The translations under genes were made by a program, and so were the position numbers. Below, in pieces: positions 1 to 64,000 of a stretch of DNA of 64,000 bases (position 1 is its first letter; every line of letters starts with the position of its first letter). The notes under the pieces are model-generated. The model did no database searches, had not been told where the DNA came from, and saw only the letters and a list, made by a program, of their open reading frames with translations. Source of the stretch: Escherichia phage fp01. The DNA is taken from sequence record NC_048731.1. The stretch is one strand, 5' to 3'.

Positions 1-158
1 ATGCAGCACTGGGAAACTGGCTATAAGGATGGTGTTGAATCCTGTGCTACTATGCTAGAAGTTATTGCTAATACCTTAATGGAGAAAGGCAATAAAGAAT
101 TAGCTGAGCTATTAGACAGTATTGGGCAAAATTTCAGAGAACAGGTGAAAAATGCGTA
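1..158 (+). CDS. C-terminal fragment of an ORF truncated by the window edge (hypothetical protein)
   Basis: Open frame 1 runs from window start to TAG at 156-158, overlapping the next start; no recognisable motifs. Confidence 0.3.
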
Positions 159-988
159 GATTAATTATTATTAGCGGTGCGGGTTTGAGTGTTGAAAGTG
201 GTGTACGAGCTTTTCGTACTGATACTGCTAGTGGTAAAGCATTGTGGGATGATTATGATCTAGAAGAAGTATGTAATATTCATGCCTTTCGTGGTAACTT
301 CTATCATAAAACCCATATGTTTTACAACAAGCGTCGTGAAGAGCTAAAAACTGTTGAACCCAATCTTGCGCATTTGCGTATTGGTGAATGGTATAAACAA
401 TATCCAGGTCAGGTAGTAAACTTGACTACCAACGTTGATGACCTTATTGAGCGTGCTGGCGTTCCAAATAGTGACATTCTGCACATTCACGGATATTTAA
501 AAGAGGTTGTTGTAGCTGATAGCTACAATAGTAGCAATAAACGGATTATTGATGTAGGATACAATTCTATTGATCCAGATGATTATAAATGGGTTAAACC
601 TAATGTAATCTTCTTTGGGGAGCATGCTCCAGCGTATGCAGAAATGTACAATGTTTTTGATGGTATTACCAGTCAAGATATGATCATTGTGGTTGGTTGC
701 TCTAACCAAGTAATTAACTTCTACTGGGAATTATTTCCTGTTCTTAATTTGAATGCTGCCAAACTAATGGTAGTTAACTACTATGATAGTGCCCTCGCAG
801 CGGAACCGGGCTATCAAGGTATGACTCGTAGTGAGATGTACCAACTGGAAGAACGTGGTATCCCTTACTGGAGTAAAGGTGCGGTAGATGCTTTTAGTGA
901 CCCTGATTTTATTGCTCGTGTAGAAGCTCATTTAGAGGGTAGACCTTATGTGTCGAGAAGCAAGGGAAACAGATATGTCCATAGTTAA
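152..988 (+). CDS. SIR2-family (sirtuin-like) NAD-dependent protein, zinc-ribbon-less
   Basis: Sirtuin core motifs in order: GAGLSVESGVRAFR, TTNVDDLIERAG, HIHG, VIFFGE, IIVVGCS; no CxxC...CxxC zinc module between HG and FGE. Confidence 0.6.
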   Translation: MRRLIIISGAGLSVESGVRAFRTDTASGKALWDDYDLEEVCNIHAFRGNFYHKTHMFYNKRREELKTVEPNLAHLRIGEWYKQYPGQVVNLTTNVDDLIERAGVPNSDILHIHGYLKEVVVADSYNSSNKRIIDVGYNSIDPDDYKWVKPNVIFFGEHAPAYAEMYNVFDGITSQDMIIVVGCSNQVINFYWELFPVLNLNAAKLMVVNYYDSALAAEPGYQGMTRSEMYQLEERGIPYWSKGAVDAFSDPDFIARVEAHLEGRPYVSRSKGNRYVHS

Positions 989-1157
989 ACCTGTGTATAC
1001 ACATCCTGATGATATATTTGTATGGGCGGACGGTAGTTGGTGCTATCGCTGTGAGCTGTGGGAAATGGATTATAAATCCGATGACTATGGTGTTATATAT
1101 GTTGATACGGTTGAGTATGATACGTTCTTAGAAAGGAACAAAAATGGAAATAAGTAA
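975..1157 (+). CDS. hypothetical small protein
   Basis: Short ORF bridging SIR2 and HAD genes; start moved to internal ATG (MSIVKPVY) to reduce overlap; no motifs. Confidence 0.25.
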   Translation: MSIVKPVYTHPDDIFVWADGSWCYRCELWEMDYKSDDYGVIYVDTVEYDTFLERNKNGNK

Positions 1158-1650
1158 TACTCCAATTATTTTTCTAGACATTGATGGGGTGCTCAATTCG
1201 AGCATCTCCCACCATCATGCACCTGATAATGAAAAGATTTTCTTTGGAAGTGACTGGGTTTTCAAACCCCTTCTCAAGGCTTTTCAGGATTTTATTCGTC
1301 CTTCTCCGATAATGATTGTTGGAGTATCCTCATGGTTCTCTGTCAGGAATGAGATGGAGAACGTTCAGATTATGACCGGATTAGGTCTTATCGATCGTTT
1401 TCTTGGTACAACGGATTTTACTGGGGGTGGATTATCTAGAGGTAATTCTGTTCTTCGTTTCGTTGAAAAGCATAAGCTCAAACATTGGTGTGTGCTTGAT
1501 GATGCTGGTGCTATGATGTATCAGTATCCAACGGTTATAGTCAACGGTAGGACTGGGATAAATCTTCAAGATTTAAAAGCTGTTAGCTATATGCTAGAAT
1601 TTAGCCCAGATCTTGAAATGTGTAAATCCTTACAACAATTTAAGGTGTAA
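1144..1650 (+). CDS. HAD-superfamily phosphatase (nucleotidase-like)
   Basis: HAD motif I FLDIDGVLN near N-terminus, motif II-like IVGVSS, motif IV-like VLDDAG; 168 aa. Confidence 0.5.
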   Translation: MEISNTPIIFLDIDGVLNSSISHHHAPDNEKIFFGSDWVFKPLLKAFQDFIRPSPIMIVGVSSWFSVRNEMENVQIMTGLGLIDRFLGTTDFTGGGLSRGNSVLRFVEKHKLKHWCVLDDAGAMMYQYPTVIVNGRTGINLQDLKAVSYMLEFSPDLEMCKSLQQFKV

Positions 1651-1652
1651 AT

Positions 1653-2081
1653 ATGTTCAATAATGTATTCTCTAAAGAAGCTAACCCAATTTTGGTTAAC
1701 TTTTGGCGTACCCTCCCGGCTAGCCTGTATAATGAGGCTATTAACTCTTTGAAAATATGGTGTGAGAATAACGAAATCTCCTTTGCTTTTAAAGATGATA
1801 TTGATGAGGCCCCTTGTATTGGTTTAATTGTTCAGGTAGAGGAGGGTCTTGAAGAGATTGTCGGCTGGAAAGAGTTAGATGAAATGGGCTTAGTTTTTGC
1901 ATTAAACTATAAGCTGTTTATGCCTGCTAAGCATCGCCTCGTTGTTAACTATAAAACTAGTGAATCTCCTGGTTTTCAGGTTAATGAACGTTATGGTTGG
2001 TCTTACTCACCGGAAGAAGTAAATGAGGGGATTCAGAAACTTCGACGTTTCGGGTATATGATCCCAGGTTTAACTGCTTAA
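1653..2081 (+). CDS. hypothetical protein, paralog A of a tandem pair
   Basis: Shares DDxPCIG...W.EL..MGL..ALN..LF.P...GxxPGL pattern with the adjacent ORF. Confidence 0.5.
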   Translation: MFNNVFSKEANPILVNFWRTLPASLYNEAINSLKIWCENNEISFAFKDDIDEAPCIGLIVQVEEGLEEIVGWKELDEMGLVFALNYKLFMPAKHRLVVNYKTSESPGFQVNERYGWSYSPEEVNEGIQKLRRFGYMIPGLTA

Positions 2082-2090
2082 GGAGGCAAA

Positions 2091-2483
2091 ATGGAACAAG
2101 TATATTGGCGTCAGATTGACCCTAGTTTGGTAAAGCGTGCGGAAAAGCTGCTACAACGTTGGTTGGGAGTAAGACAAGCCTCCTTCACTTTTCCGGAGCA
2201 GCAAACGGATGATCCCTGCATTGGCGTTTTCCTGTCTGGGTATGCCGGGGAATGGGAGATGGACTGGAATGAATTGTCCGCTATGGGTTTAATTGTTGCC
2301 CTAAATTTCTCTTTGTTCCATCCACGTGGTTTTGCCATATGTCGTGTGCCGGATGATGGCTGTTCGCCACATCTTTTACAGGTGGAAGACGATATTTGGG
2401 AGTACACTCCAGGTATTCTCAAAGAAGCTAAAGAACAGTTAAACAGTGTTGGGATCTATGTTCCGGGATTAAATGATGAATAA
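2091..2483 (+). CDS. hypothetical protein, paralog B of a tandem pair
   Basis: RBS GGAGG upstream; same conserved pattern as 1653-2081. Confidence 0.5.
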   Translation: MEQVYWRQIDPSLVKRAEKLLQRWLGVRQASFTFPEQQTDDPCIGVFLSGYAGEWEMDWNELSAMGLIVALNFSLFHPRGFAICRVPDDGCSPHLLQVEDDIWEYTPGILKEAKEQLNSVGIYVPGLNDE

Positions 2484-2667
2484 AGAATATTGGGTATGTT
2501 ATGGTAAAATTAAAAAGTGGAATAAGGGTCAACTTTCAGCTAAGCAAGTAAAATTTATGGCAAGATATTTGACTGATCCCACTTTCGATATTAAAAAGTT
2601 AAGTAGCTCAAACCGCGCTATTATACTTAAATTTGCTAGTACTATTCGTGGTCTTTTTTATGATTAA
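2473..2667 (+). CDS. hypothetical small basic protein
   Basis: 64-aa ORF overlapping the previous stop, followed directly by a hairpin terminator. Confidence 0.3.
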   Translation: MMNKEYWVCYGKIKKWNKGQLSAKQVKFMARYLTDPTFDIKKLSSSNRAIILKFASTIRGLFYD

Positions 2668-2672
2668 TCCGT

Positions 2673-2702
2673 ATAACCGAGTCATTTTGACTCGGTTTTC
2701 TC
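2673..2702 (+). terminator. rho-independent terminator
   Basis: Stem ataaccgagtc / gactcggtt with loop attttga, then TTTTC. Confidence 0.6.
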
Positions 2703-2734
2703 TATGCTCAAAGACACTGATAGCACCTTTGGGA

Positions 2735-2780
2735 AAAATTTACTTGCATGATGCCCAAAATCTTGATATAATATTTATAT
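2735..2780 (+). promoter_or_regulatory. T5-type early promoter (sigma70)
   Basis: AAAAATTT UP-like tract, -35 TTGCAT (2744-2749), 17-nt spacer, -10 TATAAT (2767-2772). Confidence 0.6.
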
Positions 2781-3271
2781 TGAATTGAGAGACATTAGTA
2801 AAAATTGATTTTGCTAATTTTTCTTGTTTACAATCCGCGATACGGAACAGTTAGGCTGCCCCATTAAGGGTTGTTTTAACTGTTACGTGTTAGTTTTTAA
2901 ACAAATAGTTAATAGAATACTTAGCGATCTGCGTCCCATAGGAACCCTGGTAAGGCCTCGAAGCAACCTAGTATGAGGTGGTTGTGAAGTGAGATGGGAG
3001 GAGTGAAAAACTACCGAGACGTGATTCTGTAAGTTATATTGCATCTAGTATGAGCTAGTACATGAAGCATTAGGTGAGCAAATCTGGCTTAGCGGCCATC
3101 CTCAAGGATTTGTGCGGTATAATGAGGCAGCAGCGCAGCGTGAAAGTGGAAGTTGCCACCCCACTTCAGTATTTGCGATTAATTGTTGAGAAATTGACAG
3201 TAACAGTTGTTCTATTCTTTCTGAATAGTCCTAAAGAAAACTTATTTCATTTCCAACACAGGAGTATTGTT

Positions 3272-6061
3272 GTGTTCTCAATCCTACAAGGTCATGCAGG
3301 ATTTCATCGCGATTTAGCCACTGGCATTTGGCGAGAAGTTAAAGCAGAAGACTATCTTTTTGCTAAAAGATTTTCCTCAAAGCATCCTGAAGGTAAACCA
3401 GCTTCAATGCCCTTCAAGTTTGATGTAATTGATGAAATTGATCCTCAAACCCTAGTAGAAATGCTCCCCCTTATGAGACGTTTAACGTCTGACCCTCATA
3501 TCGTTGCGGTACGAGGACGATGTCTTGCACCCAAAAATAATGTGCGACGTAAGAAGGGCAACTTTAATGTATCTAACCCAAGTCATATAATTGCAATGGA
3601 CGTGGATGGTATTGTAGATACAGGTGGTTGTAACAAGTTTGATCTTGTTGGCATGGCTCGACATATTATTAGGATGTTAAATAGTATTAGTGAGGATATG
3701 TTTCCTCTTGATGCAGGGTTTATTGCTCATGCATCGTCTTCGGCTGGGCTAAAACCAGGTATCCGAATGCACTTAATACTAGAATCTAATGTTAAAGTAA
3801 CTCAGGGTCAAATCAAATTCTTATTTACATCTATCAACGAAAGTAGTAGACAAAAGTATGGCTTTGATATTGCCGACTTAGCTTATTACTCTTCCGTACA
3901 GCTCCATTATTTTGCAGATCCGTTGTTTACCGATGGTATAGTAGATCCGTTTAAAGCGGAGGGTGCTTCACGTCTGGTATTTGTTAAGGGTTCTAAAGTA
4001 AATTTACCCAATAATCTGGTTGACTATGAAACAACTAGAGGTGAGTTTAAAGAAGAGTTCTACTCTTTACTCGACCAAATTAAGGGTAAAAAAGCTGCCT
4101 CTGATAAAGTAGAAGAAACTATCAGCGAACTAGAAGAAGCTGAGGATGGAGTGTATCTACGTATTATTCCTAAACTCTATCACAGGGCTTTGGAGGATGG
4201 TGTTGATTTTGCATGGTTAGAAAAAGAAATCCGTCCAGCCTTATCAGAATATATTGCAACTAAAGATAATAGTCGTAATATTCAAGACTACTTTAATAAT
4301 GGTCGTAAACAGGCTCTAAAAGCGTTTGTTAATAATTCTAAACGTGATATACCGGATGTTTTAAAAGGTATTCCACTTAAAAAGCTAGAAACTAACTCTT
4401 TAGAGACTGATAACTTCTTGAAATTAAATACTGTACCACCAGAAGGTTATATGACTTTTGTAAAAGCAAGTTTAGGTACAGGTAAAACTACAGCGGTTGT
4501 GCGTTGGTTAGATTCAGGAGTTATTAAAGGTAATTTCTTAGCAATTACCAATACTCGAGCACTGGTATCTTCAAATGCTAAGAAATTTAGTGCAGGACAA
4601 TATGATAAGTCTGTAGATATGCTTAATTTTAAGCGTGGTGCTATTGACCGTATGTCCACAACTATTCACTCTTTGCATAAGTTCAAGAGTTTTATTGGTC
4701 AAATCGATGCAATCTTTATCGATGAATGTGATGCTGTAATGAATGACCTATTGTTCGCCCCTGTTGTTAAACAACGTCGTGAATGTATTCAGGTTCTTCG
4801 GGATATTCTTGCAACTGCAAAAATCATTATATTATCTGATGGTGATATTAGTGCAGAAACAATTGAAGCATATGGTTCTTTGATTGAGTTTGATAAACCG
4901 GTTGCATTTTATAATCATCACCGTAAAATGCTGTCAAAAGCTCATGCTTACGAGTTCCCTGACGAATCCAGTATTTGGGTTGCACTTCAGACTTCTCTAG
5001 AGATGGGTGAGAAATCTATTCTGGTATCTGACTGTGGGCCGGATGAACTGAATGAGAAGGGCATGGCGTTGCGTCGTAATACGGGTGCATTAGTTAAGGA
5101 AATCCACTCAAACTCTACGTCTGATGTAGATATTAGACGTATTCTGGATTACACAACTAATGAGCTAATTGACCAACAAATTGATTGCTTATTATGTAGT
5201 CCATCCGTAACGAGTGGTGTTGACTTTAACTATTTTGATAACGTATTCGTTATCACTAGAACTAGTAACCAAGCGCCAAACATGCGTTTCCAAGCAATCA
5301 GGCGCGACCGTGGTGCTCAGAACATTTATTATTTTATTGATAAATCTACGAGTGGATTCTCCGCAGGTTCTGAGCAATATAACATTGATGAAGGTTGGCT
5401 GGAGTTAGCACAGCAATTATACGCACGTCGAAGAGAGCTGGAATCTAGGAACTATACTAGTACTTTACGTTATTATTTGCTTGATCAAGGTGCAACTATT
5501 GATATTTTCAGTGAAAGCTGGGGAACTATCGAAGGTGCAGGAAAAGAGTATACGGAAGAGCGAATCAAAGCTATATTGTATTCAACTCCTGATTATTGTG
5601 CTCCACGTCATGCAGATGCGTATGAAGCTAAACTACTTCTTGTTCGCTATTATCATCTTGAATCTATTAAAGATGTAACAGTTGAGCATGTTGAACAATA
5701 TATCAAGGATAAACCGAATGATCGAGCAGCATTCTTCCATAAAATGCACGAGATGTTCTGGGAAGATATTAAGAAGTGTTCAAATGTCACTATCAAACCA
5801 TTCATAGAAGCTCTGAAAGGTAAGAAGAAAGATTTCTTCCTTAAAACAGGTCAGAGTGCTAACCCAAAATATGCCAGAATGTATCTTGGTATGATGGGTA
5901 TTGGTAAGGATATGAACACGGAGAATATTGTAGACTGGTACAGAACTTATTGTAAAATCGAGTGTATGCCAATCCCGTATAAGTTTATGACTGATGAGGA
6001 GAAACATATGCATGATGAAGCAATGGCAGAGCTAGGTGCTAGAAATGACAGTGAAGAATAA
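3272..6061 (+). CDS. large P-loop NTPase, possible replication-initiation or origin-binding helicase-like protein
   Basis: Walker A SLGTGKTT and Walker B IFIDECD; frame open from 3074 but probable start is in-frame GTG at 3272 behind RBS AGGAG; N-terminal extension looks non-coding. Confidence 0.5.
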   Translation: MFSILQGHAGFHRDLATGIWREVKAEDYLFAKRFSSKHPEGKPASMPFKFDVIDEIDPQTLVEMLPLMRRLTSDPHIVAVRGRCLAPKNNVRRKKGNFNVSNPSHIIAMDVDGIVDTGGCNKFDLVGMARHIIRMLNSISEDMFPLDAGFIAHASSSAGLKPGIRMHLILESNVKVTQGQIKFLFTSINESSRQKYGFDIADLAYYSSVQLHYFADPLFTDGIVDPFKAEGASRLVFVKGSKVNLPNNLVDYETTRGEFKEEFYSLLDQIKGKKAASDKVEETISELEEAEDGVYLRIIPKLYHRALEDGVDFAWLEKEIRPALSEYIATKDNSRNIQDYFNNGRKQALKAFVNNSKRDIPDVLKGIPLKKLETNSLETDNFLKLNTVPPEGYMTFVKASLGTGKTTAVVRWLDSGVIKGNFLAITNTRALVSSNAKKFSAGQYDKSVDMLNFKRGAIDRMSTTIHSLHKFKSFIGQIDAIFIDECDAVMNDLLFAPVVKQRRECIQVLRDILATAKIIILSDGDISAETIEAYGSLIEFDKPVAFYNHHRKMLSKAHAYEFPDESSIWVALQTSLEMGEKSILVSDCGPDELNEKGMALRRNTGALVKEIHSNSTSDVDIRRILDYTTNELIDQQIDCLLCSPSVTSGVDFNYFDNVFVITRTSNQAPNMRFQAIRRDRGAQNIYYFIDKSTSGFSAGSEQYNIDEGWLELAQQLYARRRELESRNYTSTLRYYLLDQGATIDIFSESWGTIEGAGKEYTEERIKAILYSTPDYCAPRHADAYEAKLLLVRYYHLESIKDVTVEHVEQYIKDKPNDRAAFFHKMHEMFWEDIKKCSNVTIKPFIEALKGKKKDFFLKTGQSANPKYARMYLGMMGIGKDMNTENIVDWYRTYCKIECMPIPYKFMTDEEKHMHDEAMAELGARNDSEE

Positions 6062-6279
6062 AAAATGGGAAACAAGGAAGTTCCCAGTAAAAGAACGTAA
6101 AGTTCCTGTTTACGACACTTCGGAAAAGCTATGTAGGGTGGTACCACATAGATTAGCTGGCATCCCTAACATATCCGAGTGGTTACTTAAACAACGGAAA
6201 ACAAACGTGTCTCTTCGCATCGGCTTTGAGTTAGATAAAGTCTATGCTGAACTTGCTTCTTTGCTCAAGGAATCGTAAA

Positions 6280-6325
6280 AATTTATTTGCATAGTGCAAA
6301 AAATTTCTGTATAATAGATTCATAA
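6280..6325 (+). promoter_or_regulatory. T5-type early promoter, PN25-like
   Basis: AAAATTTATTTGCATAGTGCAAAAAATTTCTGTATAATAGATTCATAAATTTGAGAGAGGAG: -35 TTGCAT, 17-nt spacer, -10 TATAAT, conserved downstream ATAAATTTGAGAGAGGAG leader, closely resembling the classical T5 PN25 promoter as I recall it. Confidence 0.7.
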
Positions 6326-6346
6326 ATTTGAGAGAGGAGTTTAAAT

Positions 6347-7051
6347 ATGGCTGGTTCTCGTAGAAAGAAACATATCCATGAAATCCCTGATGAAGTCTTT
6401 AAAAAGGTTATAGAGCATCTGGGGAACGGTGGTACTAAGAAAGCAGCATGTGAAATGCTCGGCGTATCATCTAATCCAACTATGGAAAGGATGATTGAAG
6501 AATGGCAAGACCGCCAGATTCAAGTTGCCGAAATGAAGAAAAAGAAACGTGGCACACTTATTGAAGGCATCGAGCTAGCTAACGTTATTGAGCAGTATTT
6601 GTCTGGTGATTCTTTTGAAGAGATTGCCGATCGTAATTATCGCTCTGTAGCAATGGTTAAATCTGTTCTGGAACGATATGGTGCTCTACTTCGTTTGAAC
6701 GATATTGTAGATCCATTGAATCCTCCGATTATTCCTGATGATGCTGTAGCAGAAGAATTTGCAGTTGGTGAGCTTGTTTGGGTTCCTGGATACCAGTGTA
6801 TCGGTGAAATCAAAAAAGCAATGGATAATCCTGTTGGTTGCTACCGTGTATGGCTTCTATCAGAAGGCAAACAACAGAACGTCCATTATATGAATTACGA
6901 GCTGGCCTCTGTTAAACATCTGGAAAAGCTAGGGGTTGACGTAAAGTCTCTGGGATATAAATGGACTCGTGAAGAAATTATTACGTTGATTAACGAAGCT
7001 GTTAAGGCTGCCCTGAAACTTGATAAAGAAAAAGGAAAACGCCGTGAGTAA
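6347..7051 (+). CDS. hypothetical early protein with HTH-like segments, possible regulator
   Basis: Starts 16 nt after the PN25-like leader RBS; HTH-like stretches GTKKAACEMLGVSSNPTMERMI and FEEIADRNYRSVAMVKSVLER. Confidence 0.5.
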   Translation: MAGSRRKKHIHEIPDEVFKKVIEHLGNGGTKKAACEMLGVSSNPTMERMIEEWQDRQIQVAEMKKKKRGTLIEGIELANVIEQYLSGDSFEEIADRNYRSVAMVKSVLERYGALLRLNDIVDPLNPPIIPDDAVAEEFAVGELVWVPGYQCIGEIKKAMDNPVGCYRVWLLSEGKQQNVHYMNYELASVKHLEKLGVDVKSLGYKWTREEIITLINEAVKAALKLDKEKGKRRE

Positions 7052-7295
7052 GCTAACTGATTTGCTTAAAGATGGGGAAGTAAAAACTCTGTACCGTAGA
7101 AGCTGGGATAATGATAATAATGGCTTAGTATTACTAACTCTAGATGCTGATTTGGATGTAGTTACCCAACATACCTGGGTAGCTGGTAACTATCCGTATA
7201 GCGAGGTTGTAGCATTAACAGTATGCGAAGCTATTGCGGACGATTGGGAGGTTTCCAGCATCGATGATATGCTCGCTGTTGGCCTAGTGGAGTAA
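7047..7295 (+). CDS. hypothetical protein
   Basis: ORF overlapping previous stop (GTGA); probable GTG start after purine-rich tract; acidic small protein. Confidence 0.4.
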   Translation, partial: SKLTDLLKDGEVKTLYRRSWDNDNNGLVLLTLDADLDVVTQHTWVAGNYPYSEVVALTVCEAIADDWEVSSIDDMLAVGLVE

Positions 7296-7304
7296 CTACT
7301 GAAA

Positions 7305-7345
7305 AATTTCAGTTGCTTAATCCTATAATTCTTGATATAATATTC
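7305..7345 (+). promoter_or_regulatory. T5-type early promoter
   Basis: -35 TTGCTT (7313-7318), 17-nt spacer, -10 TATAAT (7336-7341), AT-rich upstream. Confidence 0.55.
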
Positions 7346-7398
7346 TCATAGTTTGAAAGAACTATTCTGTTTAATTCTTAATTAAGGAAATATAAAAT

Positions 7399-7809
7399 AT
7401 GACTACTCCAACTCAGTGGACTGATGAACTGTTCGAAAAAATGTCTTCCGAATACGTTGCTCGTATGGAGCAATTCCCAGAGGATGAACGTCCGGGTGTT
7501 AGCATGGAAATTGTTAGCGAAATTGCCCAAGAAAATGGTGTAACTCCGAACGGTTTTCGTATGAAGCTGACTAAAGCAGGTTTGTATATCAAGAAAGCTG
7601 CTGGCTCTGCTTCTAAATCTAGCGCATCTACAGGAGAAAAAGCTTCTGGTGGTTCTCGTACTTCCAAAGCCCAAGCTCATGCCGACCTTCGTTCAGCATT
7701 CTCTGATGCTGGCCTAGCACCAGATTTTCTGGATGATGCAATTATCGACAAACTGACCGGTAAAGCGGCTGCTCATCTGGCAGAAGCAATCCGAGCTATC
7801 ACTAAGTAA
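7399..7809 (+). CDS. hypothetical protein, likely abundantly expressed
   Basis: Good RBS (AAGGAAAT), strong bias to CTG/CGT/GCT codons unlike neighbours; Ala/Ser/Lys-rich central linker. Confidence 0.55.
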   Translation: MTTPTQWTDELFEKMSSEYVARMEQFPEDERPGVSMEIVSEIAQENGVTPNGFRMKLTKAGLYIKKAAGSASKSSASTGEKASGGSRTSKAQAHADLRSAFSDAGLAPDFLDDAIIDKLTGKAAAHLAEAIRAITK

Positions 7810-7823
7810 TAAGGAGATTATAC

Positions 7824-8114
7824 ATGAACAAGCAAGAAATTATCTCCGCATGTGAAGCTCATAACGAGTTCTATCTTCATTACGAGAAATTACGCCAAAA
7901 AGGTACTACGTACCTTCAAGGTACTATGGATTTTTCTGATAAGTACCTTAGTAAACGATTTGCCCAGGAGCGTATTCGTCAACCAAAAGACGACGAGATT
8001 CTAGTATTTAGTCGTACTAATGATAGCTTCCGTTTTATTCCTGTAAATAAGGTGAAACGTATTACTTCATTGTCTAGTGAACTCGATAGAGCTACGCCAG
8101 TAGGCAAAAAATAA
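7824..8114 (+). CDS. hypothetical protein
   Basis: RBS AAGGAGA 7 nt upstream; 96 aa; followed by a terminator. Confidence 0.45.
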   Translation: MNKQEIISACEAHNEFYLHYEKLRQKGTTYLQGTMDFSDKYLSKRFAQERIRQPKDDEILVFSRTNDSFRFIPVNKVKRITSLSSELDRATPVGKK

Positions 8115-8120
8115 TAAAGA

Positions 8121-8150
8121 AAAGGAGAGCTTCGGCTCTCCTTTGTTGTA
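8121..8150 (+). terminator. rho-independent terminator
   Basis: aaaggagagc-ttcg-gctctccttt perfect stem followed by TTGTTGTAT. Confidence 0.6.
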
Positions 8151-8161
8151 TATGGGTTATA

Positions 8162-8827
8162 GTGAAAAAGTTAACAGCAAAGCAAATAAATAAAGAATTA
8201 GAGCCGCGAGGTTTTAGTATAGTAAGTGAGTGGATTAATATAAGGACACCCGCCATATTTAAGTGCTCAAAAGGTCACCAATGGAGGGCATACCTAAACA
8301 ACATAAGAAAAGGTAGTGGTTGTCCACACTGTAGTAATAAAGCTAAGCTTACTATAGAGCAAATAAATCAACAATTAGCCAATAGAGGTATAAAACTTGT
8401 ATCCACGTATATCAATGCCCATAGTCAAGCAGTATTCGAGTGCGAAGAAGGACATAGGTGGACTAGTAGCGTGGATAAGATTAAAAATGCAGGAAGATCT
8501 TGTCCTATCTGTATAGCTACAAGCTATTTGTATATATTTTATAGCCAGCAGCTTGGAACAAAAATAGGAACATCTAAAAGTCCAGAGAGAAGACTTTTAG
8601 AGATCAAAAAAGATTCTAATCTAGAGGACTTGAGTGCATATGGAGTATACTCTTGTGAGGGGTCAGCATATAATCTAGAAAATAAAGCACATAGATTCTT
8701 TAGTGCTACACAGATATTTACAGAATCAATATTTGACGGTTCTACTGAGTTTTTCAATATTCAACCAGAGGAGGCAGAGGAATATCTCCTAAGTCAGGGA
8801 GCAATAAAATGTCAGGAGATAATGTAA
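8162..8827 (+). CDS. putative homing-endonuclease-like protein (duplicated Cys4 zinc ribbons plus GIY-YIG/T5orf172-like segment)
   Basis: Two repeated modules C-x-x-GH-x-W...C-P-x-C; downstream YLYIFYSQ...TKIGTS resembles the GIY-YIG/T5orf172 nuclease core; AT-rich codon usage unlike flanking genes; GTG start. Confidence 0.4.
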   Translation: MKKLTAKQINKELEPRGFSIVSEWINIRTPAIFKCSKGHQWRAYLNNIRKGSGCPHCSNKAKLTIEQINQQLANRGIKLVSTYINAHSQAVFECEEGHRWTSSVDKIKNAGRSCPICIATSYLYIFYSQQLGTKIGTSKSPERRLLEIKKDSNLEDLSAYGVYSCEGSAYNLENKAHRFFSATQIFTESIFDGSTEFFNIQPEEAEEYLLSQGAIKCQEIM

Positions 8828-9120
8828 ATCAGGATTATGTTGGACATGTAGATGATCAGTCCATAGTTATCTGGGAAAGAGAAGATGGCCAACAGGTTAG
8901 GCTAACTGTATCTGAGTTTAGGGGGAATCTATACTTAGGAATTAGGTACTGGCTCCAAGATATAGAAGGTGAATGGTTTCCAACAAAAAGTGGATTCAGT
9001 ATGCCCTACACTCTAGAAACAACATCTCATTTATTTAAGGCATTTACTAAAATATTATCTAATAGTGAGGTTTTATTAGAAGTAGAAAAAGAAGCTAAAC
9101 GCCTGGCGGAAAAAGAATAA
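8809..9120 (+). CDS. hypothetical protein
   Basis: 103-aa ORF overlapping upstream gene end; AT-rich codon usage shared with 8162-8827. Confidence 0.35.
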   Translation: MSGDNVNQDYVGHVDDQSIVIWEREDGQQVRLTVSEFRGNLYLGIRYWLQDIEGEWFPTKSGFSMPYTLETTSHLFKAFTKILSNSEVLLEVEKEAKRLAEKE

Positions 9121-9124
9121 ATGT

Positions 9125-9160
9125 ATTTGCTTTCAACTCAGTTTTGTTATATAATATTTA
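9125..9160 (+). promoter_or_regulatory. T5-type early promoter
   Basis: -35 TTGCTT (9127-9132), 17-nt spacer, -10 TATAAT (9150-9155), then ATAAATTGATGAGAG leader. Confidence 0.6.
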
Positions 9161-9186
9161 TATAAATTGATGAGAGATACAAATAA

Positions 9187-10158
9187 ATGACTAATGTAAA
9201 AGACTTTATTAAACGTTGTCAAGAAGCATATTACCAGGGAATGTCTTTAATCTCTGACGAAGAATATGATCGTCTGATTAAAAGATTTCCGTTAGAAGAA
9301 GAGATCGGGCCTAAGGGTGATATTCCACATCTGTATCGTATGTATTCTTTACAGAAAGTTTATTATAATCGTGGAGATAAACCCCCATTTAACCCGTTAG
9401 GTCAGGTAGAAACTGATAAGTTAGATGGTTGTGCGATTTCTCTGTTATATATTAATGGCGAATTTGTTCAAGCACTAACTCGTGGCAATGGTATTCTAGG
9501 GAATGATGTCACAAGCAACGTAAGATTGCTGAACATCCCCAAAAAGATTTCCCAAAAAGTACCTACTCAAATCACTGGTGAAGTTCTAATTACAAAAGAA
9601 GTAGAAAATAAACGTAACTTTGCCTCTGGTGCTATTAACCTCAAAGATAGCGATGATTTCGTACAACGTATCGGAGAAGGTGGTTTAATCTTCGTTGCAT
9701 ATGGTATCCAGTGTTCTGCTGAATCTGTAGGTATTACAGAAACGTATTTAAAAGATATGCTTTGGCTAGAGAATGAGAACTTCTTAACAGTTGTTAATGT
9801 GCGTTCCTTCTTTAAATGGATTCCGACGGATGGTAAAGTTGTTCGTATTAATGACAACAACAAATTCTTCCGAGAAGGCTGGACTAATAAATTCCCTCGT
9901 GGAGCATTCGCTATTAAAGAGGATGAAGAAGGCGAGATTACAACTCTTACTAAAGTTGAATGGCAGGTAGGGGCTTCTGGTAAAGTAACTCCAGTTGGTT
10001 ATTTCGAACCGGTAATTATTGATGATGCTACAATTGTTAAGGCGACTCTTAATAACGTTGATTATATTAACTCTCTTGATCTAGAGATCGGTTGCCAGAT
10101 TCGAGTGATTCGTGCCGGTGGTGTAATCCCGTGCATAGTAGAGCGAGTATACGATTAA
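9187..10158 (+). CDS. ligA: NAD-dependent DNA ligase, N-terminal subunit (domain Ia, adenylation, OB fold)
   Basis: Domain Ia-like SDEEYDRLIKRF, adenylation lysine motif KLDGCA, TRGNG motif; ends before the Zn-finger region. Confidence 0.8.
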   Translation: MTNVKDFIKRCQEAYYQGMSLISDEEYDRLIKRFPLEEEIGPKGDIPHLYRMYSLQKVYYNRGDKPPFNPLGQVETDKLDGCAISLLYINGEFVQALTRGNGILGNDVTSNVRLLNIPKKISQKVPTQITGEVLITKEVENKRNFASGAINLKDSDDFVQRIGEGGLIFVAYGIQCSAESVGITETYLKDMLWLENENFLTVVNVRSFFKWIPTDGKVVRINDNNKFFREGWTNKFPRGAFAIKEDEEGEITTLTKVEWQVGASGKVTPVGYFEPVIIDDATIVKATLNNVDYINSLDLEIGCQIRVIRAGGVIPCIVERVYD

Positions 10159-10208
10159 TACATAACCCTTTGCTACCCATCCACCATATCGGAATTATAA
10201 AGTGGTTA

Positions 10209-10237
10209 TTGACATTTTCGCCGCTTAGGTATATACT
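10209..10237 (+). promoter_or_regulatory. near-consensus sigma70 promoter inside the ligase spacer
   Basis: TTGACA (10209-10214), 17-nt spacer, TATACT (10232-10237). Confidence 0.5.
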
Positions 10238-61681: not shown

Positions 61682-61894
61682 ATGATCCGCAACGTTTCTC
61701 TTGCACGTTCGAAAGGCTTTAAGCTGGTGGATGCTAACACGTTCGAGCGTCTTGATTGTAAAATCGAATATGTAGCACGTAACAAAAATGCCTTTCGTGT
61801 TACCGAGAAAAAATTTGACAAGCGCGGCAACGTGATCGCTGAAACGGTTAAACACTTTGCCACCTTTTACGCTGCGTTTCGTGGGGTGTTATAA
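61682..61894 (+). CDS. hypothetical small basic protein
   Basis: 70 aa; starts 3 nt after previous stop. Confidence 0.35.
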   Translation: MIRNVSLARSKGFKLVDANTFERLDCKIEYVARNKNAFRVTEKKFDKRGNVIAETVKHFATFYAAFRGVL

Positions 61895-61895
61895 A

Positions 61896-62240
61896 ATGGT
61901 TATTTATGAAGGCAATCGTTTTGTTGCTAATTGCCGCCCGGCATTGTTAGCAAACTATTTAAATCAGCTTTCGCCAGCTTATAAGGGCGTTATTAATATT
62001 TATGAGGGCAAGGCACATTATAAAATTAATGCGGTCGTTGCCCGTGAACTAGCATTTCAATTTTTGACCTTTGCATCTTGTGACGTTCAAGTTATGGGTG
62101 AAGCATTAATTGCGGAAAATGAAGAGGATTTTATTAATATTTTCCGCAAGGTATGCACCGAGCGCCTGATAATGAAAGGCGCGTATATTCAATCCACTGC
62201 GGATAGTATTGAAACAGCGTTTCGAAAGGTGGCACAATGA
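61896..62240 (+). CDS. hypothetical protein
   Basis: ATG at 61896 directly after upstream stop; 114 aa. Confidence 0.35.
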   Translation: MVIYEGNRFVANCRPALLANYLNQLSPAYKGVINIYEGKAHYKINAVVARELAFQFLTFASCDVQVMGEALIAENEEDFINIFRKVCTERLIMKGAYIQSTADSIETAFRKVAQ

Positions 62241-62395
62241 AAAAGTTTTTAATAGCTGGCATGTTTCCTTTGTTGCCTTATGTAATTTGCTGGGCTTTAT
62301 ATGCTCATGGTGCTAGTGTTCCCGGTGTGGCTGCATTTGGTGTATCAGCGGGCTTTCTAGCCGGACTACTAGCAAGCGTATATTTACGCAAGTAA
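62237..62395 (+). CDS. small membrane peptide (52 aa)
   Basis: Hydrophobic throughout; ATGA overlap with upstream gene; found by hand. Confidence 0.3.
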   Translation: MKKFLIAGMFPLLPYVICWALYAHGASVPGVAAFGVSAGFLAGLLASVYLRK

Positions 62396-62414
62396 TTAAC
62401 AACGGAGCGTTATT

Positions 62415-62609
62415 ATGAGCAATAAAATTATTGTAACCAAAACCAGCACAACGGTTGATGTTTTTTACGTGCCCGATACGCCGGAAAACCGACAAGCGGT
62501 CGAGCGTGGGGAATATGATAAAGTGATTTATGATCACGATGGTTATTATCAGTATTTGGTGGATTCATATGGGGAGGAGGAAAAGATCACGCACCGACTA
62601 CCGGACTAA
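62415..62609 (+). CDS. hypothetical small acidic protein
   Basis: 64 aa; RBS ACGGAG. Confidence 0.35.
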   Translation: MSNKIIVTKTSTTVDVFYVPDTPENRQAVERGEYDKVIYDHDGYYQYLVDSYGEEEKITHRLPD

Positions 62610-62650
62610 TAATCACGGGGCGCAACTATCAGGAAGTGCCCCCAATTCTC

Positions 62651-62671
62651 AAATGAGAATGATTCTCATTT
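62651..62671. repeat. perfect 21-bp palindrome
   Basis: AAATGAGAATGATTCTCATTT; related copies at about 63160 and 63220. Confidence 0.7.
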
Positions 62672-62893
62672 GACCGCGCCCGCGATGGTTAGCCTGCTAA
62701 TGGTTAGGGTGTTACGTGTCGCCTTGTGTGATCGTTAGCGAGCTAACTAATTTTCAAGCCTCCTCCAATTTTGCCCTTGTTTTAGTATCCCCACCAAAAT
62801 TAAACGCGTTAGAATGCGTTTGAGGGCGTTTTAGCGGTATATTAGAATTATTCACTGCGTAGGAATACTGTATATTTATCCAGTAGGATAAGC

Positions 62894-62978
62894 TGTGGAT
62901 AAGTCTGTTGATAACGCTTCAAAACGGCTAGGATTTTGTCAAGTCAAATCGTGCTGTTGATAAGTCTGGGGATAACTT
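62894..62978. promoter_or_regulatory. cluster of DnaA-box-like sites
   Basis: TGTGGATAA (62894-62902, exact reverse-complement consensus), TGTTGATAA at 62906 and 62955, GGGGATAAC at 62967. Confidence 0.55.
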
Positions 62979-63007
62979 AAATAATAGTGTTTCTCACTTC
63001 CGTTCTT

Positions 63008-63250
63008 AAATGCGAATCATTATCATTTGCATTCCACTTCCTGAATAAGAATCATTCCACTATCTAAACGATAATCATTCCACTTCCTGAATAATAATCA
63101 TTCCACTATCTAAATAAGAATCATTCCACTATCTAAACGATAATCATTCCACTTTTTAAATGAGATTGATTCTCATTCCACTTTCTAAATGCGAATTATT
63201 ATCATTCGCATTCCGCTTTTTAAATGAGAATGATTCTTATTATCATTCGT
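63008..63250. repeat. about 9 tandem copies of a roughly 23-bp direct repeat (iteron-like)
   Basis: Repeating (A)ATCATTCCACT(A/T)TCTAAA(C/T)(G/A) units. Confidence 0.8.
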
Positions 63251-63255
63251 ATTTA

Positions 63256-63282
63256 GCGCAGAGCAATTGCTCTGCGCTTTTG
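63256..63282 (+). terminator. perfect 22-bp palindrome with T-tract
   Basis: GCGCAGAGCAATTGCTCTGCGC then TTTTG. Confidence 0.55.
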
Positions 63283-63520
63283 TGCAAAACCGACATTGCT
63301 CCACGGGTGTTACGTGCGGGCGTATGTGCAAATCCGACAGGATTTTTGGTAGTGTGCAAATCCGACCCGAAAAATTTTTATAGTGTGCGAATCCGACAAT
63401 GAATTTTTCCAAAAACTCCAGCAATCCGATGCTGCGCATCAATCCTGTGGAATTAACTAGAATATGTGCAAATCCGACATGAGTTTATTTGTGCGAATCC
63501 GACAAGATTTTTGTGACTTC
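63282..63520. repeat. six direct 13-bp repeats GTGCRAAWCCGAC
   Basis: Copies near 63282, 63328, 63353, 63384, 63466, 63490, each followed by an A/T-rich tract. Confidence 0.8.
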
Positions 63521-63529
63521 GATTGGAGG

Positions 63530-63700
63530 GTGTGTGATTGTGTGGGTTTGGGGAGAAGTTGAGAGAGCGAGGGAAAATTAGGGGAGAAGCTAGAGAGGCG
63601 CATGTTTGGTGCGGGGGCACCCGATTTGCGGGGATTTTGGGGAAGAGTTGAGAAGATTTGGGTTAATTTGAGATTAGTGGAGATAAAGTAAAATTTTATT
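63530..63700. repeat. purine-rich G-tract region with three GGGGARRAGYTRGAGA copies
   Basis: ggggagaagttgagaga, ggggagaagctagagag, ggggaagagttgagaag; strong G/A strand skew. Confidence 0.6.
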
Positions 63701-63834
63701 AGCTAAATGGGGCAAAATAGCTTGACAAGTGAAAATTCTTGTGGCTCTAAAAACTCAGGCAATCATGGGCCTTCGGCCCGAAATAATGCTGCCATTTTCA
63801 AGAGATTATGTGTCCATGAAAACTTAGGCAATTG

Positions 63835-63985
63835 TGCAAATCCGACCATAAATTTCTAGAAACACAATGTGCAAATCCGACAGTAAAATCCAGAAATGTG
63901 TTTTCAAAAAATGTTGTCTAGAAATAACCGCCCTCCCCATAACCGCCCTGTATTAAACCGCCTAGTATATGTTCCTAGAAACTTA
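63835..63985. repeat. two further GTGCAAATCCGAC copies followed by four AACCGCC motifs
   Basis: GTGCAAATCCGAC at about 63837 and 63870; AACCGCC at about 63927, 63943, 63957, 63981. Confidence 0.7.
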
Positions 63986-64000
63986 GGAGAACCGCCCACT

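Follow-up and report, generated by a model that had tools for sequence, protein, structure and literature searches.

Bases 62610–64000 of Escherichia phage fp01, an injection-stop-type repeat region with LexA-box-like palindromes beside tandem DnaA boxes

Phage T5 has been known since the 1960s to deliver its DNA in two steps. The T5 element called Repeat Region 3, or the injection stop signal, is reportedly treated in Heusterspreute 1987, Wang 2005 and Davison 2015. In the T5 record (GenBank AY543070), a misc_feature at 9140..10149, inside the left terminal repeat, is labelled 'injection stop signal (iss)', and in the published description the FST shear point at ~7.9% falls in the injection-stop region. 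The same repeats and DnaA boxes were described in 25 T5-like phages (Davison 2020). With the receptor alone T5 ejects its DNA completely in vitro, the stop does not depend on protein synthesis, and papers from 2026 describe the stop/restart mechanism of T5 as poorly understood.

We compared this element with bases 62610–64000 of phage fp01 (NC_048731.1); the whole analysed stretch of 64,000 nucleotides is referred to as the window. By sequence comparison the window belongs to a T5-like (Tequintavirus) genome, and the region is homologous to T5 Repeat Region 3 (83% over 1.2 kb, with window 62774–63964 aligned at 83% to T5 9317–10436). It is ~94% identical to Salmonella phage GSP044 and 72–92% identical to 26 relatives, and 449 phage records contain homologous, collinear sequence, with coverage of 80% or more of the region in 215 of them; many of the compared genomes are close relatives, so these counts overstate independent support. 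The region sits right after the rightward pre-early operon, whose genes stop at 62609, at the inner end of the terminal repeat, and no other 1.2 kb of the window is as dense in repeats (score 212, the median being 10). Equivalent regions were located by this k-mer repeat density in place of an ORF-free-gap criterion, the gaps being filled by random six-frame ORFs. The DRE, DRC, DRD and DRA repeat families occur in T5 order, and from left to right the region comprises a 131-bp inverted-repeat copy, AT-rich 23-bp repeats, a hairpin, GTGCRAAWCCGAC copies, the repeat boundary and unique DNA. Judging from this alignment, bases 62610–64000 are almost certainly a homologue of the T5-type iss; the original prediction had suggested such a region near the inner end of the terminal repeat, and both homology and the T5 annotation bear this out. 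The region type is already known and is ordinary for T5-like phages: a non-coding, presumably cis-acting composite that occupies the inner end of a long direct terminal repeat, with 253 bp of the window to the right of the inner boundary extending into unique DNA. The elements, and their counterparts elsewhere in the window, are the following.

About 52878/52879 (entry 52878–52927), plus strand: left boundary of the single (collapsed) terminal-repeat copy, from the T5 alignment
58836–58966, plus strand: partner inverted repeat (IRC-spacer-IRD, T5 'Repeat Region 2'), upstream of the rightward pre-early operon
58949–58968, no strand: LexA-box-like palindrome CACTGTATAAATATACAGGG, the partner copy, 19.0 bits, second-best match in the whole window
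62610–62860, plus strand: spacer after the last pre-early gene, with a 25-bp palindrome and short repeats
62866–62885, no strand: LexA-box-like palindrome TACTGTATATTTATCCAGTA, 8 bp from the first DnaA box
62868–62998, plus strand: IRD'-spacer-IRC' block of 131 bp, an inverted copy of 58836–58966
62894–62975, minus strand: four DnaA boxes (62894–62902, 62906–62914, 62955–62963 and 62967–62975)
62977–63254, plus strand: AT-rich repeat block (30% GC) of direct repeats, a tandem array and palindromic units
63255–63283, plus strand: GC-rich hairpin (22/24-bp perfect palindrome) and TTTTG
63282–63503, plus strand: six GTGCRAAWCCGAC ('DRD') copies, starting at 63282, 63326, 63354, 63385, 63466 and 63491
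63511–63690, plus strand: purine-rich block (66% purine on this strand), with GGGGAGAAG-type repeats at 63550, 63581 and 63639
63691–63800, plus strand: best-conserved block, 95–99% conserved, spanning the inner boundary and a hairpin
63834–63881, plus strand: two GTGCAAATCCGAC copies outside the terminal repeat, starting at 63834 and 63869 (T5 equivalents 10306 and 10341)
63924–63996, plus strand: four AACCGCC motifs in unique DNA right of the repeat, at 63926, 63941, 63956 and 63990, including two ATAACCGCCCT units

All motifs that the original prediction had listed are present where it placed them, far above chance: a DnaA-box cluster with one exact box (62894, with three one-mismatch boxes, a clustering absent from shuffles), a perfect 22-bp palindrome with a T-tract (63255–63278), eight 13-mers (exactly 8 copies of GTGCRAAWCCGAC, all on the plus strand), three purine-rich repeats (GGGGARRAG, 3 times) and four AACCGCC motifs. 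Its statement that the region holds no plausible ORF likewise held, there being no profile match, no conservation and no codon bias. The last real gene (62415–62609, stop codon 62607–62609) matches phrog_6973 at 4e-42. The ORFs of 80 and 85 aa within the region have no PHROG or Pfam match and are intact in only 4/27 and 8/27 relatives, respectively, a minus-strand frame stays open in 13/27, and substitutions by codon position are even (55/54/55, p=0.99). A coding role for the two ORFs was ruled out by the absent matches, the poor conservation and the flat codon-position pattern, and tRNA and Rfam scans of the region returned nothing above noise. The spacer that follows the last gene carries a 25-bp palindrome, TCAAATGAGAATGATTCTCATTTGA, at 62649–62673 (RNA fold −11.6 kcal/mol, z −4.0), which is found in most close relatives and is absent from T5, as well as ATGGTTAGC-type short repeats at 62685–62745.

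The four DnaA boxes form two same-strand tandem pairs with 3-bp gaps, the pairs lying 61 bp apart; the box at 62894 is an exact TGTGGATAA, and those at 62906, 62955 and 62967 have one mismatch each. The total of 19 boxes with at most one mismatch in the window is at the chance level (19.4). Four boxes within 170 bp were seen in 0/200 shuffles (maximum 3), two pairs in the 12-bp register again in 0/200, and this is the only DnaA-box cluster of its kind in 64 kb. In T5 (112 kb), pairs in this register occur at this region only, and the paired geometry is found in My1 and Roth49 as well. The 131-bp block that contains the boxes is 91–97% conserved across 27 genomes; within it, variation is greatest at the bases by which the DnaA boxes are defined (TGTGGATAA, TGTTGATAA, TGGGGATAA, TGTTAATAA and TGTTGAAAA), and therefore most boxes are non-consensus. 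From the sequence, we consider it likely that DnaA binds the boxes in vivo. The partner repeat at 58836–58966 is identical at 98/133 positions to the reverse complement of 62868–62998, has DnaA boxes TTACCCACA (58859), TTTTACACA (58920) and TTATCCACA (58932), and adjoins a LexA-type palindrome of its own.

The palindrome at 62866 differs from TACTGTATATATATACAGTA at two positions, a match expected 0.01 times per window. A matrix derived from 12 E. coli SOS boxes, which themselves span 18.5–25.3 bits, gives it 25.3 bits, the score of the umuD and sbmC boxes, and ranks it first in 64 kb. Across 27 genomes the half-sites of this palindrome do not vary, whereas its centre does. We found that a LexA-type box adjoins the DnaA boxes in both repeat copies, family-wide, at a separation of 7–8 bp, and that the window, My1 and Chloris share one LexA–DnaA spacing. 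LexA-type sites lie within 60 bp of a DnaA box in 72/75 cases at T5-like loci, in 4/4 in My1/Roth49 and in 9/12 in Vibrio phages; in 310 kb of control contigs no LexA-type site was found. The module thus reads LexA-type box, N8, DnaA box, N3, DnaA box, ~40 bp, DnaA box, N3, DnaA box. The combination of a LexA-type box with tandem DnaA boxes has no other occurrence in T5 or the window, and the module is mirrored 3.9 kb to the left, both copies converging on the rightward pre-early operon.

The putative landing-pad module of LexA-type and DnaA sites is conserved from Vibrio to E. coli/Salmonella Demerecviridae. In Chloris, pVp-1 and four more Vibrio-phage genomes the A2-distal operon lies between convergent DnaA-box clusters, in excess of shuffles, and the Vibrio-phage A1 is ~32% identical to that of phage fp01. 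Since the host consensus is kept in phages whose own proteins are ~32% identical, we argue that the constraint comes from the host. On balance LexA probably binds the palindromes, which could instead be a DNA structure or the binding site of a phage protein. Distant A1-encoding IMG/VR contigs (L044–L057 and L071–L074, with A1 36–47% and ~30% identical) do not have a T5-like layout and serve as negative controls only; they contain no DnaA-box cluster, LexA-type site or comparable non-coding repeat patch, their repeats being coding. The searchable literature gives no link of T5-like phages to SOS boxes, an earlier report in three older papers being possible. A near-consensus LexA box at the DnaA boxes goes beyond the accessible literature, as do the convergent DnaA-box clusters that extend to Vibrio Demerecviridae, where they too bracket the A2-distal pre-early operon.

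To the right of the module, the AT-rich block consists of two 81-bp direct repeats (62977–63057 and 63156–63236), a 23/46-bp tandem array in which TRF finds 5.7 copies of the 23-bp unit (63030–63161), diverged 29/35-bp units to 63248, and AAATGAGAATGATTCTyATT palindromic units. The CATTCCRCT core of the array occurs 8 times in the region and once elsewhere in the window; hence the tandem array of about nine 23-bp repeats in the original prediction is present, and its count was slightly high. A comparison of copy number across related phages shows that the array is expanded in phage fp01, with 8 cores against 0–6 in relatives, and it is gapped in ~80% of them.

The block is followed by the hairpin, in which GCGCAGAGCAATTGCTCTGCGC at 63255–63278 is perfectly palindromic over 22 bp (24 counting the A/T on its flanks) and precedes TTTTG. 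Its RNA fold is −22.5 kcal/mol (z −5.9), and its 6-bp core stem is paired in 11/11 sequence variants with 2 compensatory pairs, the loop being enlarged to 10–12 nt in a divergent clade. As a terminator, the hairpin has a tract of only TTTT before GTG, and the consensus scan gave no call. The T5 nick at 9748/9749 occupies the same place in the homologous hairpin, equivalent to window 63277/63278, and the '7.9%' single-strand interruption of T5 is predicted on the minus strand between 63277 and 63278 (5'-AAAA^GCGC). The D13 site at window 21881/21882 is homologous to T5 78573/78574; the only DRD copies outside the region lie 363 bp from this nick site.

With at most one mismatch, GTGCRAAWCCGAC has 10 matches in the window, where 0.11 are expected. 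The array is conserved in T5 and My1, its start-to-start spacings of 44, 28, 31, 81, 25, 343 and 35 bp are irregular, and in at least one relative an HNH gene of 0.6 kb is inserted inside it. The DRD 13-mer as a nick-site marker was ruled out, the T5 nicks at 22336 and 39746 having no DRD nearby. My1 has an analogous purine-rich block, and the AACCGCC motifs are conserved there at 13013–13040.

The left boundary of the collapsed repeat copy follows from the alignment of window 52893 to T5 position 15 and of window 52592 onward to T5 111245 onward, across the T5 right-repeat start at 111532. Just inside this boundary, GCTAACCGCCACCCCC at 52912–52927 is an AACCGCC-type motif like those at 63924–63996. 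The inner boundary lies at 63747/63748, with CTTGTGGCTC on its left and TAAAAACTCAGG on its right, in the best-conserved block, which also includes the hairpin GGGCCTTCGGCCC (63767–63779). The junction sequence is identical in T5 (10219), X5 (9508) and L6jm (10386), and the repeat/unique junction is the right physical genome end in these three and at least five further deposited genomes. Eight of nine right-repeat loci stop at query position 1136–1139, which is window 63745–63748; the deposited boundaries that disagree are those of one locus that ends ~207 bp earlier and of Kenya-K36, which annotates the repeat ~600 bp further right. The block at 63691–63800 is presumed to be the terminase end-formation site, and this right-hand 110 bp would then have a separate function, the formation of the genome end.

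How might such a region stop DNA transfer? DNA would enter left end first, and host proteins already present, membrane-associated DnaA and probably also LexA, would bind the module as soon as it reached the cytoplasm, which would explain why the pause requires a cell without new protein synthesis. A complex at the channel mouth would then arrest transfer while the AT-rich repeats, the hairpin with its nick and the DRD array are still in the envelope or tail. Identity as an iss homologue, combined with a layout served by this host-protein mechanism, is in our view a probable overall explanation and the best one. Binding of pre-existing host proteins is, we infer, the best-supported account of the stop, and the step from binding to causing the stop is offered tentatively, at somewhat less than even weight. 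It is doubtful that the core of the stop signal is specifically a landing pad for LexA and DnaA, mirrored round the A2-distal operon and acting as a brake or membrane anchor. The variability of the DnaA-box bases and the non-consensus state of most boxes count against the host-protein account. A protein on DNA that has already entered has no obvious way to stop a push from capsid pressure unless it sits at the channel mouth. LexA cleavage cannot be a requirement for the restart, since recA cloning strains support the growth of T5-type phages. Furthermore, T5 tolerates a deletion running from hegG to 017, which takes the partner repeat with it, and still forms plaques, albeit small ones; the mirrored copy is therefore dispensable.

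The explanations that compete with binding by host proteins differ in what they make of the same elements. That the repeats are an assembly artefact is scarcely credible, even though the source assembly has its terminal repeat collapsed to one copy and the copy number of the 23-bp array exceeds that of every relative, because homologous, collinear sequence occurs in the 449 phage records and all elements except the array copy number are shared with relatives. A replication origin was an alternative in the original prediction; if DnaA-dependent, it would combine the DnaA boxes with an AT-rich unwinding element and with iterons. The four-box cluster, the adjacent 30% GC block and the eight 13-mer 'iterons' do look origin-like, but the geometry does not fit. 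In E. coli oriC the unwinding element lies 3' of a box read as TTATCCACA. The boxes here read TTATCCACA on the minus strand, so that an unwinding element would be due to the left of 62894, whereas the AT-rich repeats lie to the right, at 62977–63254; orientation thus rules out an oriC-like unwinding geometry. In the basal unwinding system, tandem DnaA boxes are combined with DnaA-trios and an AT-rich element within ~16 bp of the box. The irregular spacing of the DRD copies (25–343 bp) and the absence of an adjacent initiator-like gene also speak against an origin, and phased repeats beside an initiator gene, as at iteron-type origins, were not found at the region. The T5 origins are mapped near the genome centre, the T5 replication genes are silent in the first-step period, the gene for the T5.108 'origin binding protein' lies at 59.5 kb in T5 (DNA flanking its start aligns to window ~2.7–3.4 kb), and a relative tolerates the 0.6-kb HNH gene within the DRD array; we therefore regard an origin as very improbable. 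A locus solely for packaging or terminus recognition, like the arrays that in T7-type phages flank the terminal repeats as concatemer-junction processing signals, would account for the repeat boundary within the most conserved block and for AACCGCC-type motifs close to both ends, inward of the left terminus and outward of the right boundary. It would not account for the ~770 bp between the boundary block and the DnaA/LexA module, for a module copy 3.9 kb away in mid-repeat, where no cutting occurs, or for an HNH gene that can split the two halves of the region. As an explanation of the whole region packaging is thus quite unlikely; the packaging alternative in the original prediction holds for the boundary sub-block, where the junction lies in the most conserved 110 bp, and fails for the rest.

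Two further explanations bear on the stop itself. Palindromes, the GC hairpin and the predicted interruption at 63277/63278 might extrude or kink and so jam the tail or envelope channel, in which case the DnaA and LexA sites would serve another purpose. The density of palindromes and inverted repeats, the maintenance of the hairpin by compensatory changes and loop replacement, the coincidence of the first major T5 nick with the hairpin and the 7.9% first-step boundary, and the block of a Tequintavirus after first-step transfer by a DNA intercalator are all consistent with a structural stop. We nevertheless think such a stop rather unlikely: complete ejection in vitro with the receptor alone means that the structure of virion DNA does not by itself stop transfer, My1 keeps the remaining architecture but lacks the GCGC/TTTTG hairpin before the first DRD copy, and interruption-deficient T5 mutants are reportedly viable. 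The LexA/DnaA modules might otherwise be transcription or insulation devices of the pre-early operon (a roadblock, a terminator, or a control that senses SOS or DnaA), with the stop signal elsewhere in the region. LexA and DnaA both regulate transcription, the modules bracket the operon convergently in all subfamilies examined, and the hairpin with its T-tract (−22.5 kcal/mol) lies downstream of the operon, the T5 terminator annotated at 9275–9296 not being conserved in phage fp01. Against this, the LexA-type sites in T5 (6211 and 9409) do not overlap the annotated promoters (5938–6012 and 6411–6489), the consensus scan of the region found no excess of promoters or terminators over shuffles, and the genes of the operon are all dispensable, yet the flanking non-coding modules are better conserved than these genes. 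A purely transcriptional role is accordingly unlikely.

The window itself adds one more member to a well-described element. The comparison narrows the candidates for the stop signal to a short module kept at host consensus, a LexA-type box with tandem DnaA boxes, and it distinguishes functions previously treated together: the host-factor module, the AT-rich array of variable copy number, the nick-site hairpin, the DRD array and the genome-end block. If the host-protein account is true, assembly of LexA and DnaA on the entering DNA would make two-step delivery possible. The family-wide pair of putative host-protein sites could help test how T5-like phages pause DNA entry.

The closest known system is the T5 iss region itself, which the fp01 region resembles in its position behind the last rightward pre-early gene and astride the repeat boundary, in the order of its elements (131-bp inverted repeat with paired DnaA boxes, DRE/DRC, 7.9% nick hairpin, DRD 13-mers, DRA) and in the mirrored copy in Repeat Region 2. 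The two phages differ in that the exact DnaA box is at position 4 in T5 and position 1 in fp01, in that T5 has 1 CATTCCRCT core where the expanded 23/46-bp array of fp01 has 8, and in that fp01 has the 25-bp palindrome after the last gene where T5 has the annotated terminator. A compensated G>A / C>T change in the hairpin arms makes the nick motif CTCTGCGC in fp01, against CCCTGCGC in T5. The T5 interruption motif (5'-NPu^pGCGCN-3', nicked strand) is found in the window on the minus strand at 63277/63278 and at the D13 site; four distinct annotated T5 nick sites share the extended motif CCC(T)GCGC/Y, from which the first site of the window differs at one base. Like T7-type terminal-repeat arrays, the region has short reiterated motifs on both sides of a direct-repeat boundary and a highly conserved block at the cut, but the T5 repeat is ~10 kb and contains genes, and the motifs are unrelated in sequence.

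The module also resembles two kinds of host site. As in oriC, the basal unwinding system, datA and DARS, tandem same-strand DnaA boxes at most 3 bp apart lie beside AT-rich DNA, one box of the tandem is closer to consensus than the other, and the two box arrays face each other like the halves of oriC. Unlike in oriC, the AT-rich array is on the opposite side, the two box arrays lie 3.9 kb from each other with genes in between, a LexA-type box accompanies the DnaA boxes, and the T5 origins map elsewhere than the DnaA-box region. Compared with E. coli SOS operators (consensus TACTG(TA)5CAGTA), the 20-mers at 62866 and 58949 score at the top of and within the range, respectively, and have invariant half-sites and a variable centre, as expected for a dimer site. 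The phage sites differ from these operators in that their T5 homologues overlap no annotated promoter, in being always coupled to DnaA boxes and in belonging to a virulent phage.

Searched by megablast, the region 62610–64000 matched 449 phage records, nearly all from T5-like phages of Salmonella or Escherichia (Demerecviridae, Tequintavirus), with Salmonella phage GSP044 closest (93.7%, full length). The window runs collinear to the right half of the T5 genome, with 15308–50112 aligning to T5 72.0–108.5 kb. One copy of the long terminal repeat follows in the alignment (window 52893 at T5 position 15), the T5 right-repeat end falls at window 63747 (T5 121750), and beyond it the alignment is to the T5 DNA that adjoins the left repeat on its right side (window 63964 at T5 10436). 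Because the alignment passes through one repeat copy into T5 left-unique DNA, the assembly has a single collapsed repeat, flanked by right-unique and left-unique DNA and, by homology, probably spanning ~52879–63747. Window 62774–63964 aligns to T5 9317–10436 at 83%. In the T5 record (GenBank AY543070), 9140..10149 carries the label 'injection stop signal (iss)' and lies inside the left terminal repeat (1..10219); a 'major DNA single-chain interruption' is placed at 9748/9749. The same 1.2-kb element is described as 'Repeat Region 3' in the Davison 2020 preprint (10.1101/866236), where it overruns ~270 bp into unique DNA and is conserved in 25 T5-like phages. The region is therefore one more copy of an element already known and named, and homology and annotation support the preferred reading of the original prediction, a T5-type injection-stop region.

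Features of the region in window coordinates
62610–62860: spacer, containing a 25-bp palindrome (62649–62673)
62866–62885: LexA-type palindrome
62868–62998: IRD'-spacer-IRC' inverted-repeat block (131 bp); inverted partner at 58836–58966, 98/133 identical
62894, 62906, 62955, 62967: DnaA boxes
62977–63254: AT-rich repeat block, 30% GC
63255–63283: GC hairpin and TTTTG
63282–63503: six DRD copies (13-mer repeat)
63511–63690: purine-rich block
63691–63800: block spanning the repeat boundary
Unique DNA right of the boundary: two further DRD copies and four AACCGCC motifs

All the motifs listed from the sequence alone were found in 62610–64000. The DRD 13-mer GTGCRAAWCCGAC is present in exactly the eight copies claimed, and with ≤1 mismatch it has 10 matches in the window against 0.11 expected. 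The predicted DnaA-box cluster comprises one exact TGTGGATAA and three one-mismatch boxes, and the perfect 22-bp palindrome with a T-tract is confirmed, extending to 24 bp if the flanking A/T is counted, with TTTTG after it. The 23-bp array is present, but the claimed count of about nine is slightly high, with 5.7 strict-register copies and eight copies of the core CATTCCRCT in the region; diverged 29/35-bp units extend the array. K-mer repeat density peaks here, and no other 1.2 kb of the window is as repetitive (212 versus a median of 10). The second most repeat-dense stretch, ~27600–29000, is collinear with the T5 L-shaped tail-fibre gene region and includes a run of 41 N (28627–28667). The region was also rightly called gene-free: none of its ORFs matches a PHROG or Pfam family, the two longest are intact in 4/27 and 8/27 relatives, and its substitutions have no codon-position bias (55/54/55, p=0.99). 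Searches of the region for tRNAs and Rfam families matched none. The last real gene, at 62415–62609, matches phrog_6973 (4e-42).

Conservation along the region, aligned across the window and 26 distinct relatives (72–92% identical), is uneven. It is highest across the repeat boundary (95–99%), and reaches 91–97% in the inverted-repeat block and ~90% in the hairpin and first DRD copies. Repeat copy number was compared among related phages, a check proposed with the original prediction: there are eight CATTCCRCT cores here versus 0–6 in the 26 relatives, and the 23-bp array is gapped in ~80% of them, so its copy number is free to vary. The 23/46-bp AT-rich array at 63030–63161 has the most copies of any compared phage, either a real expansion or an assembly effect. 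Two IMG/VR relatives (L012 and L036) carry a ~0.6-kb insertion between the fourth and fifth DRD copies (window ~63428), with a 179-aa HNH-endonuclease-like ORF on the − strand (…VDHIDQDPTNNSPENL…). The region thus tolerates a mobile gene, and the distance between its left and right halves need not be fixed. Elsewhere, a 172-aa ORF (58149–58667, − strand) between Repeat Regions 1 and 2 has the length and position of the T5 hegG HNH endonuclease, an insert missing from most T5-like phages according to Davison. Two + strand ORFs (113 and 164 aa) at 60260–61110 lie in a ~0.9 kb insertion that T5 does not have, with the gene 011 homologue on one side and the gene 012 homologue on the other, and L6jm has a 164-aa ORF annotated at the equivalent place.

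In T5, X5 and L6jm, the right genome end (last record bases) is ...CTGTGGCTC, the left repeat copy runs on after the junction as TAAAAACTCAGG..., and in the window the junction is at 63747|63748. Of nine IMG/VR right-repeat loci, eight end at positions corresponding to 63745–63748. In My1, from a different subfamily, the annotated repeat end (12854) is closely preceded by GGGGCAAAA..TTGACAAnTGAAAA and closely followed by AACCGCCCT repeats. The boundary sub-block is best read as a putative signal for genome-end formation, and the suggestion of a packaging-related locus holds for this sub-block and not for the rest of the region. Deposited boundaries are not unanimous: one IMG/VR locus ends ~207 bp before the T5-type junction, and Kenya-K36 (L001, 1–8641) annotates its terminal repeat ~600 bp right of it. 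In the window the left repeat terminus (52878–52927) is followed by GCTAACCGCCACCCCC, which is similar to the AACCGCC repeats found immediately beyond the right boundary. X5 (L004) and L6jm (L006) have at positions 1–40 a left-terminal AGATGAGAATGAGTCTCATTA palindrome like those of the stop-signal region; the window and T5 are without it.

The homologous T5 palindrome has the annotated nick at its 3′ edge (GCAGGGCAATTGCCCTGCGC|TTTTGTGCAAATCCGAC), and the five annotated T5 nicks, at four distinct sites, have in common the + strand motif CCC(T)GCGC|Y, which is the right arm of the hairpin. The window has CTCTGCGC|TTTT, and its left arm is changed to match. All 11 sequence variants keep the six-pair core stem paired, two independent compensatory double changes were equalled by only 2/500 shuffles, and a divergent clade has swapped the CAATTG centre for a 10–12-nt loop and kept the stem. 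The compensatory changes and the loop replacement indicate a stem-loop and not a dimer-binding palindrome. With a predicted RNA fold of −22.5 kcal/mol (z −5.9), the hairpin could be a terminator of the rightward operon; its T-tract is short, and a consensus terminator scan gave no call. The terminator annotated in T5 has no conserved counterpart in the 62610–62860 spacer. Separately, the nick context of T5 D13 (an SbcC-like gene) is conserved at 21862–21901 (...GCCCGCGC|C), where the − strand is predicted to be nicked at 21881|21882. A DRD-like 13-mer tandem pair (GTGCAAAACCTAC, GTGCAAATCCGAC) lies inside the D13 gene at 22244–22271, 363 bp right of the predicted nick, and is in T5 too (78936/78951). 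A general DRD–nick link, suggested by this pair, was rejected.

DnaA boxes are at chance frequency window-wide (19 versus 19.4); in 200 shuffles neither four boxes in 170 bp nor pairs in 12-bp register arose. The region's boxes form two same-strand pairs with 3-bp gaps; their positions are fixed in the 131-bp block, yet no columns of that block vary more than the bases that define the boxes, and each genome keeps one or two consensus boxes and weaker others. The inverted partner at 58836–58966 lies upstream of the rightward pre-early operon. The paired geometry and the mirrored partner are kept in Roth49 (Klebsiella; A1 73% identical) and My1 (Pectobacterium; A1 65% identical), and in the 112 kb of T5 same-strand 12-bp-register pairs occur only at 9437 and 9498 and in the right-repeat copies. 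The Vibrio phages Chloris and pVp-1 and four further Vibrio-phage genomes, with A1 ~32% identical to that of fp01, have two oppositely oriented clusters, both exceeding shuffles. One (4–5 boxes) lies between A2 and a divergent small operon, and the other (3 boxes, spacing ~50 then 12 bp) at the operon's far end, ~0.4–0.6 kb from the repeat's inner terminus. Hence, in all three sampled Demerecviridae subfamilies, convergent DnaA-box clusters bracket the A2-distal pre-early operon.

A sensitive comparison of the Vibrio and T5-type modules revealed a common palindrome directly outside the tandem boxes. At 62866–62885 it reads TACTGTATATTTATCCAGTA, which differs at two positions from TACTGTATATATATACAGTA, the SOS-box consensus of E. 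coli (0.01 expected), and a second LexA-type palindrome, CACTGTATAAATATACAGGG, lies at 58949–58968. Under a matrix of 12 E. coli SOS boxes (PMC3009722 Table 4; training sites 18.5–25.3 bits), these are the top two sites of the 64-kb window, at 25.3 and 19.0 bits; the next-best match scores 15.5, and 30 shuffle maxima average 12.7 (highest 20.5). Sites of at least 18 bits in T5 (112 kb) occur only at 6211–6230, 9409–9428 and the repeat copies, and further boxes lie at ~501–520 in Chloris (L060) and at ~6027 and ~8810 in pVp-1 (L061). LexA-type sites fall ≤60 bp from a DnaA box in 72/75 cases in T5-like loci, 4/4 in My1/Roth49 and 9/12 in Vibrio phages; 310 kb of control contigs contained none. 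In the relatives' alignment the half-sites are invariant and the centre variable, and the window, My1 and Chloris share one module spacing (20-mer, N7–8, box, N3, box). Both inverted-repeat copies have a LexA-type box abutting tandem DnaA boxes, conserved from Vibrio to enteric Demerecviridae.

The T5 stop mechanism is still open in the 2026 literature. A1 and A2 are reported to be required to resume T5 DNA transfer, the receptor alone gives complete ejection in vitro, and the shear point of first-step DNA lies in the Repeat Region 3/iss region. We favour Davison's host-factor brake, widened to LexA, as the candidate explanation of the pause, because the LexA/DnaA module is the only part of the region at host consensus family-wide, is found nowhere else in these genomes, and would bind proteins that pre-exist in the cell, which fits a pause needing the cell and no new synthesis. 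The module would be the last DNA to reach the cytoplasm at the pause, and the AT-rich repeats, hairpin/nick and DRD array would remain in the channel. This brake has weak points: the DnaA boxes are mostly non-consensus, a complex on entered DNA would block entry only if at the channel mouth, and the mirrored partner is dispensable, since T5 remains viable when hegG to 017 is deleted, although the mutant's plaques are small. T5-type phages grow on recA strains, and LexA cleavage therefore cannot be the restart trigger.

Rival readings are that the stop is purely structural, that the modules serve transcription or insulation, or that the region has a role in packaging only. The replication-origin alternative was not borne out, for three reasons: an oriC-type module would have its AT-rich block on the other side of the boxes, the DRD copies are irregularly spaced, and published mapping puts T5 origins elsewhere, with the annotated origin-binding-protein gene at 59.5 kb. 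Window ~2673–3427 is homologous to the T5 intergenic DNA that precedes T5.108 (annotation 'putative replication origin binding protein') and would be a more plausible origin location than 62610–64000.

The family-wide coupling of a LexA-type box to DnaA boxes is possibly unreported: the Davison 2020 preprint (10.1101/866236) never mentions LexA or SOS, and a literature search linking T5-like phages to SOS boxes, outside which the 1987, 2005 and 2015 T5 accounts lay, returned no paper. The element itself is already known, and what is of interest is the mechanism of the stop and this possibly unreported LexA-type box.
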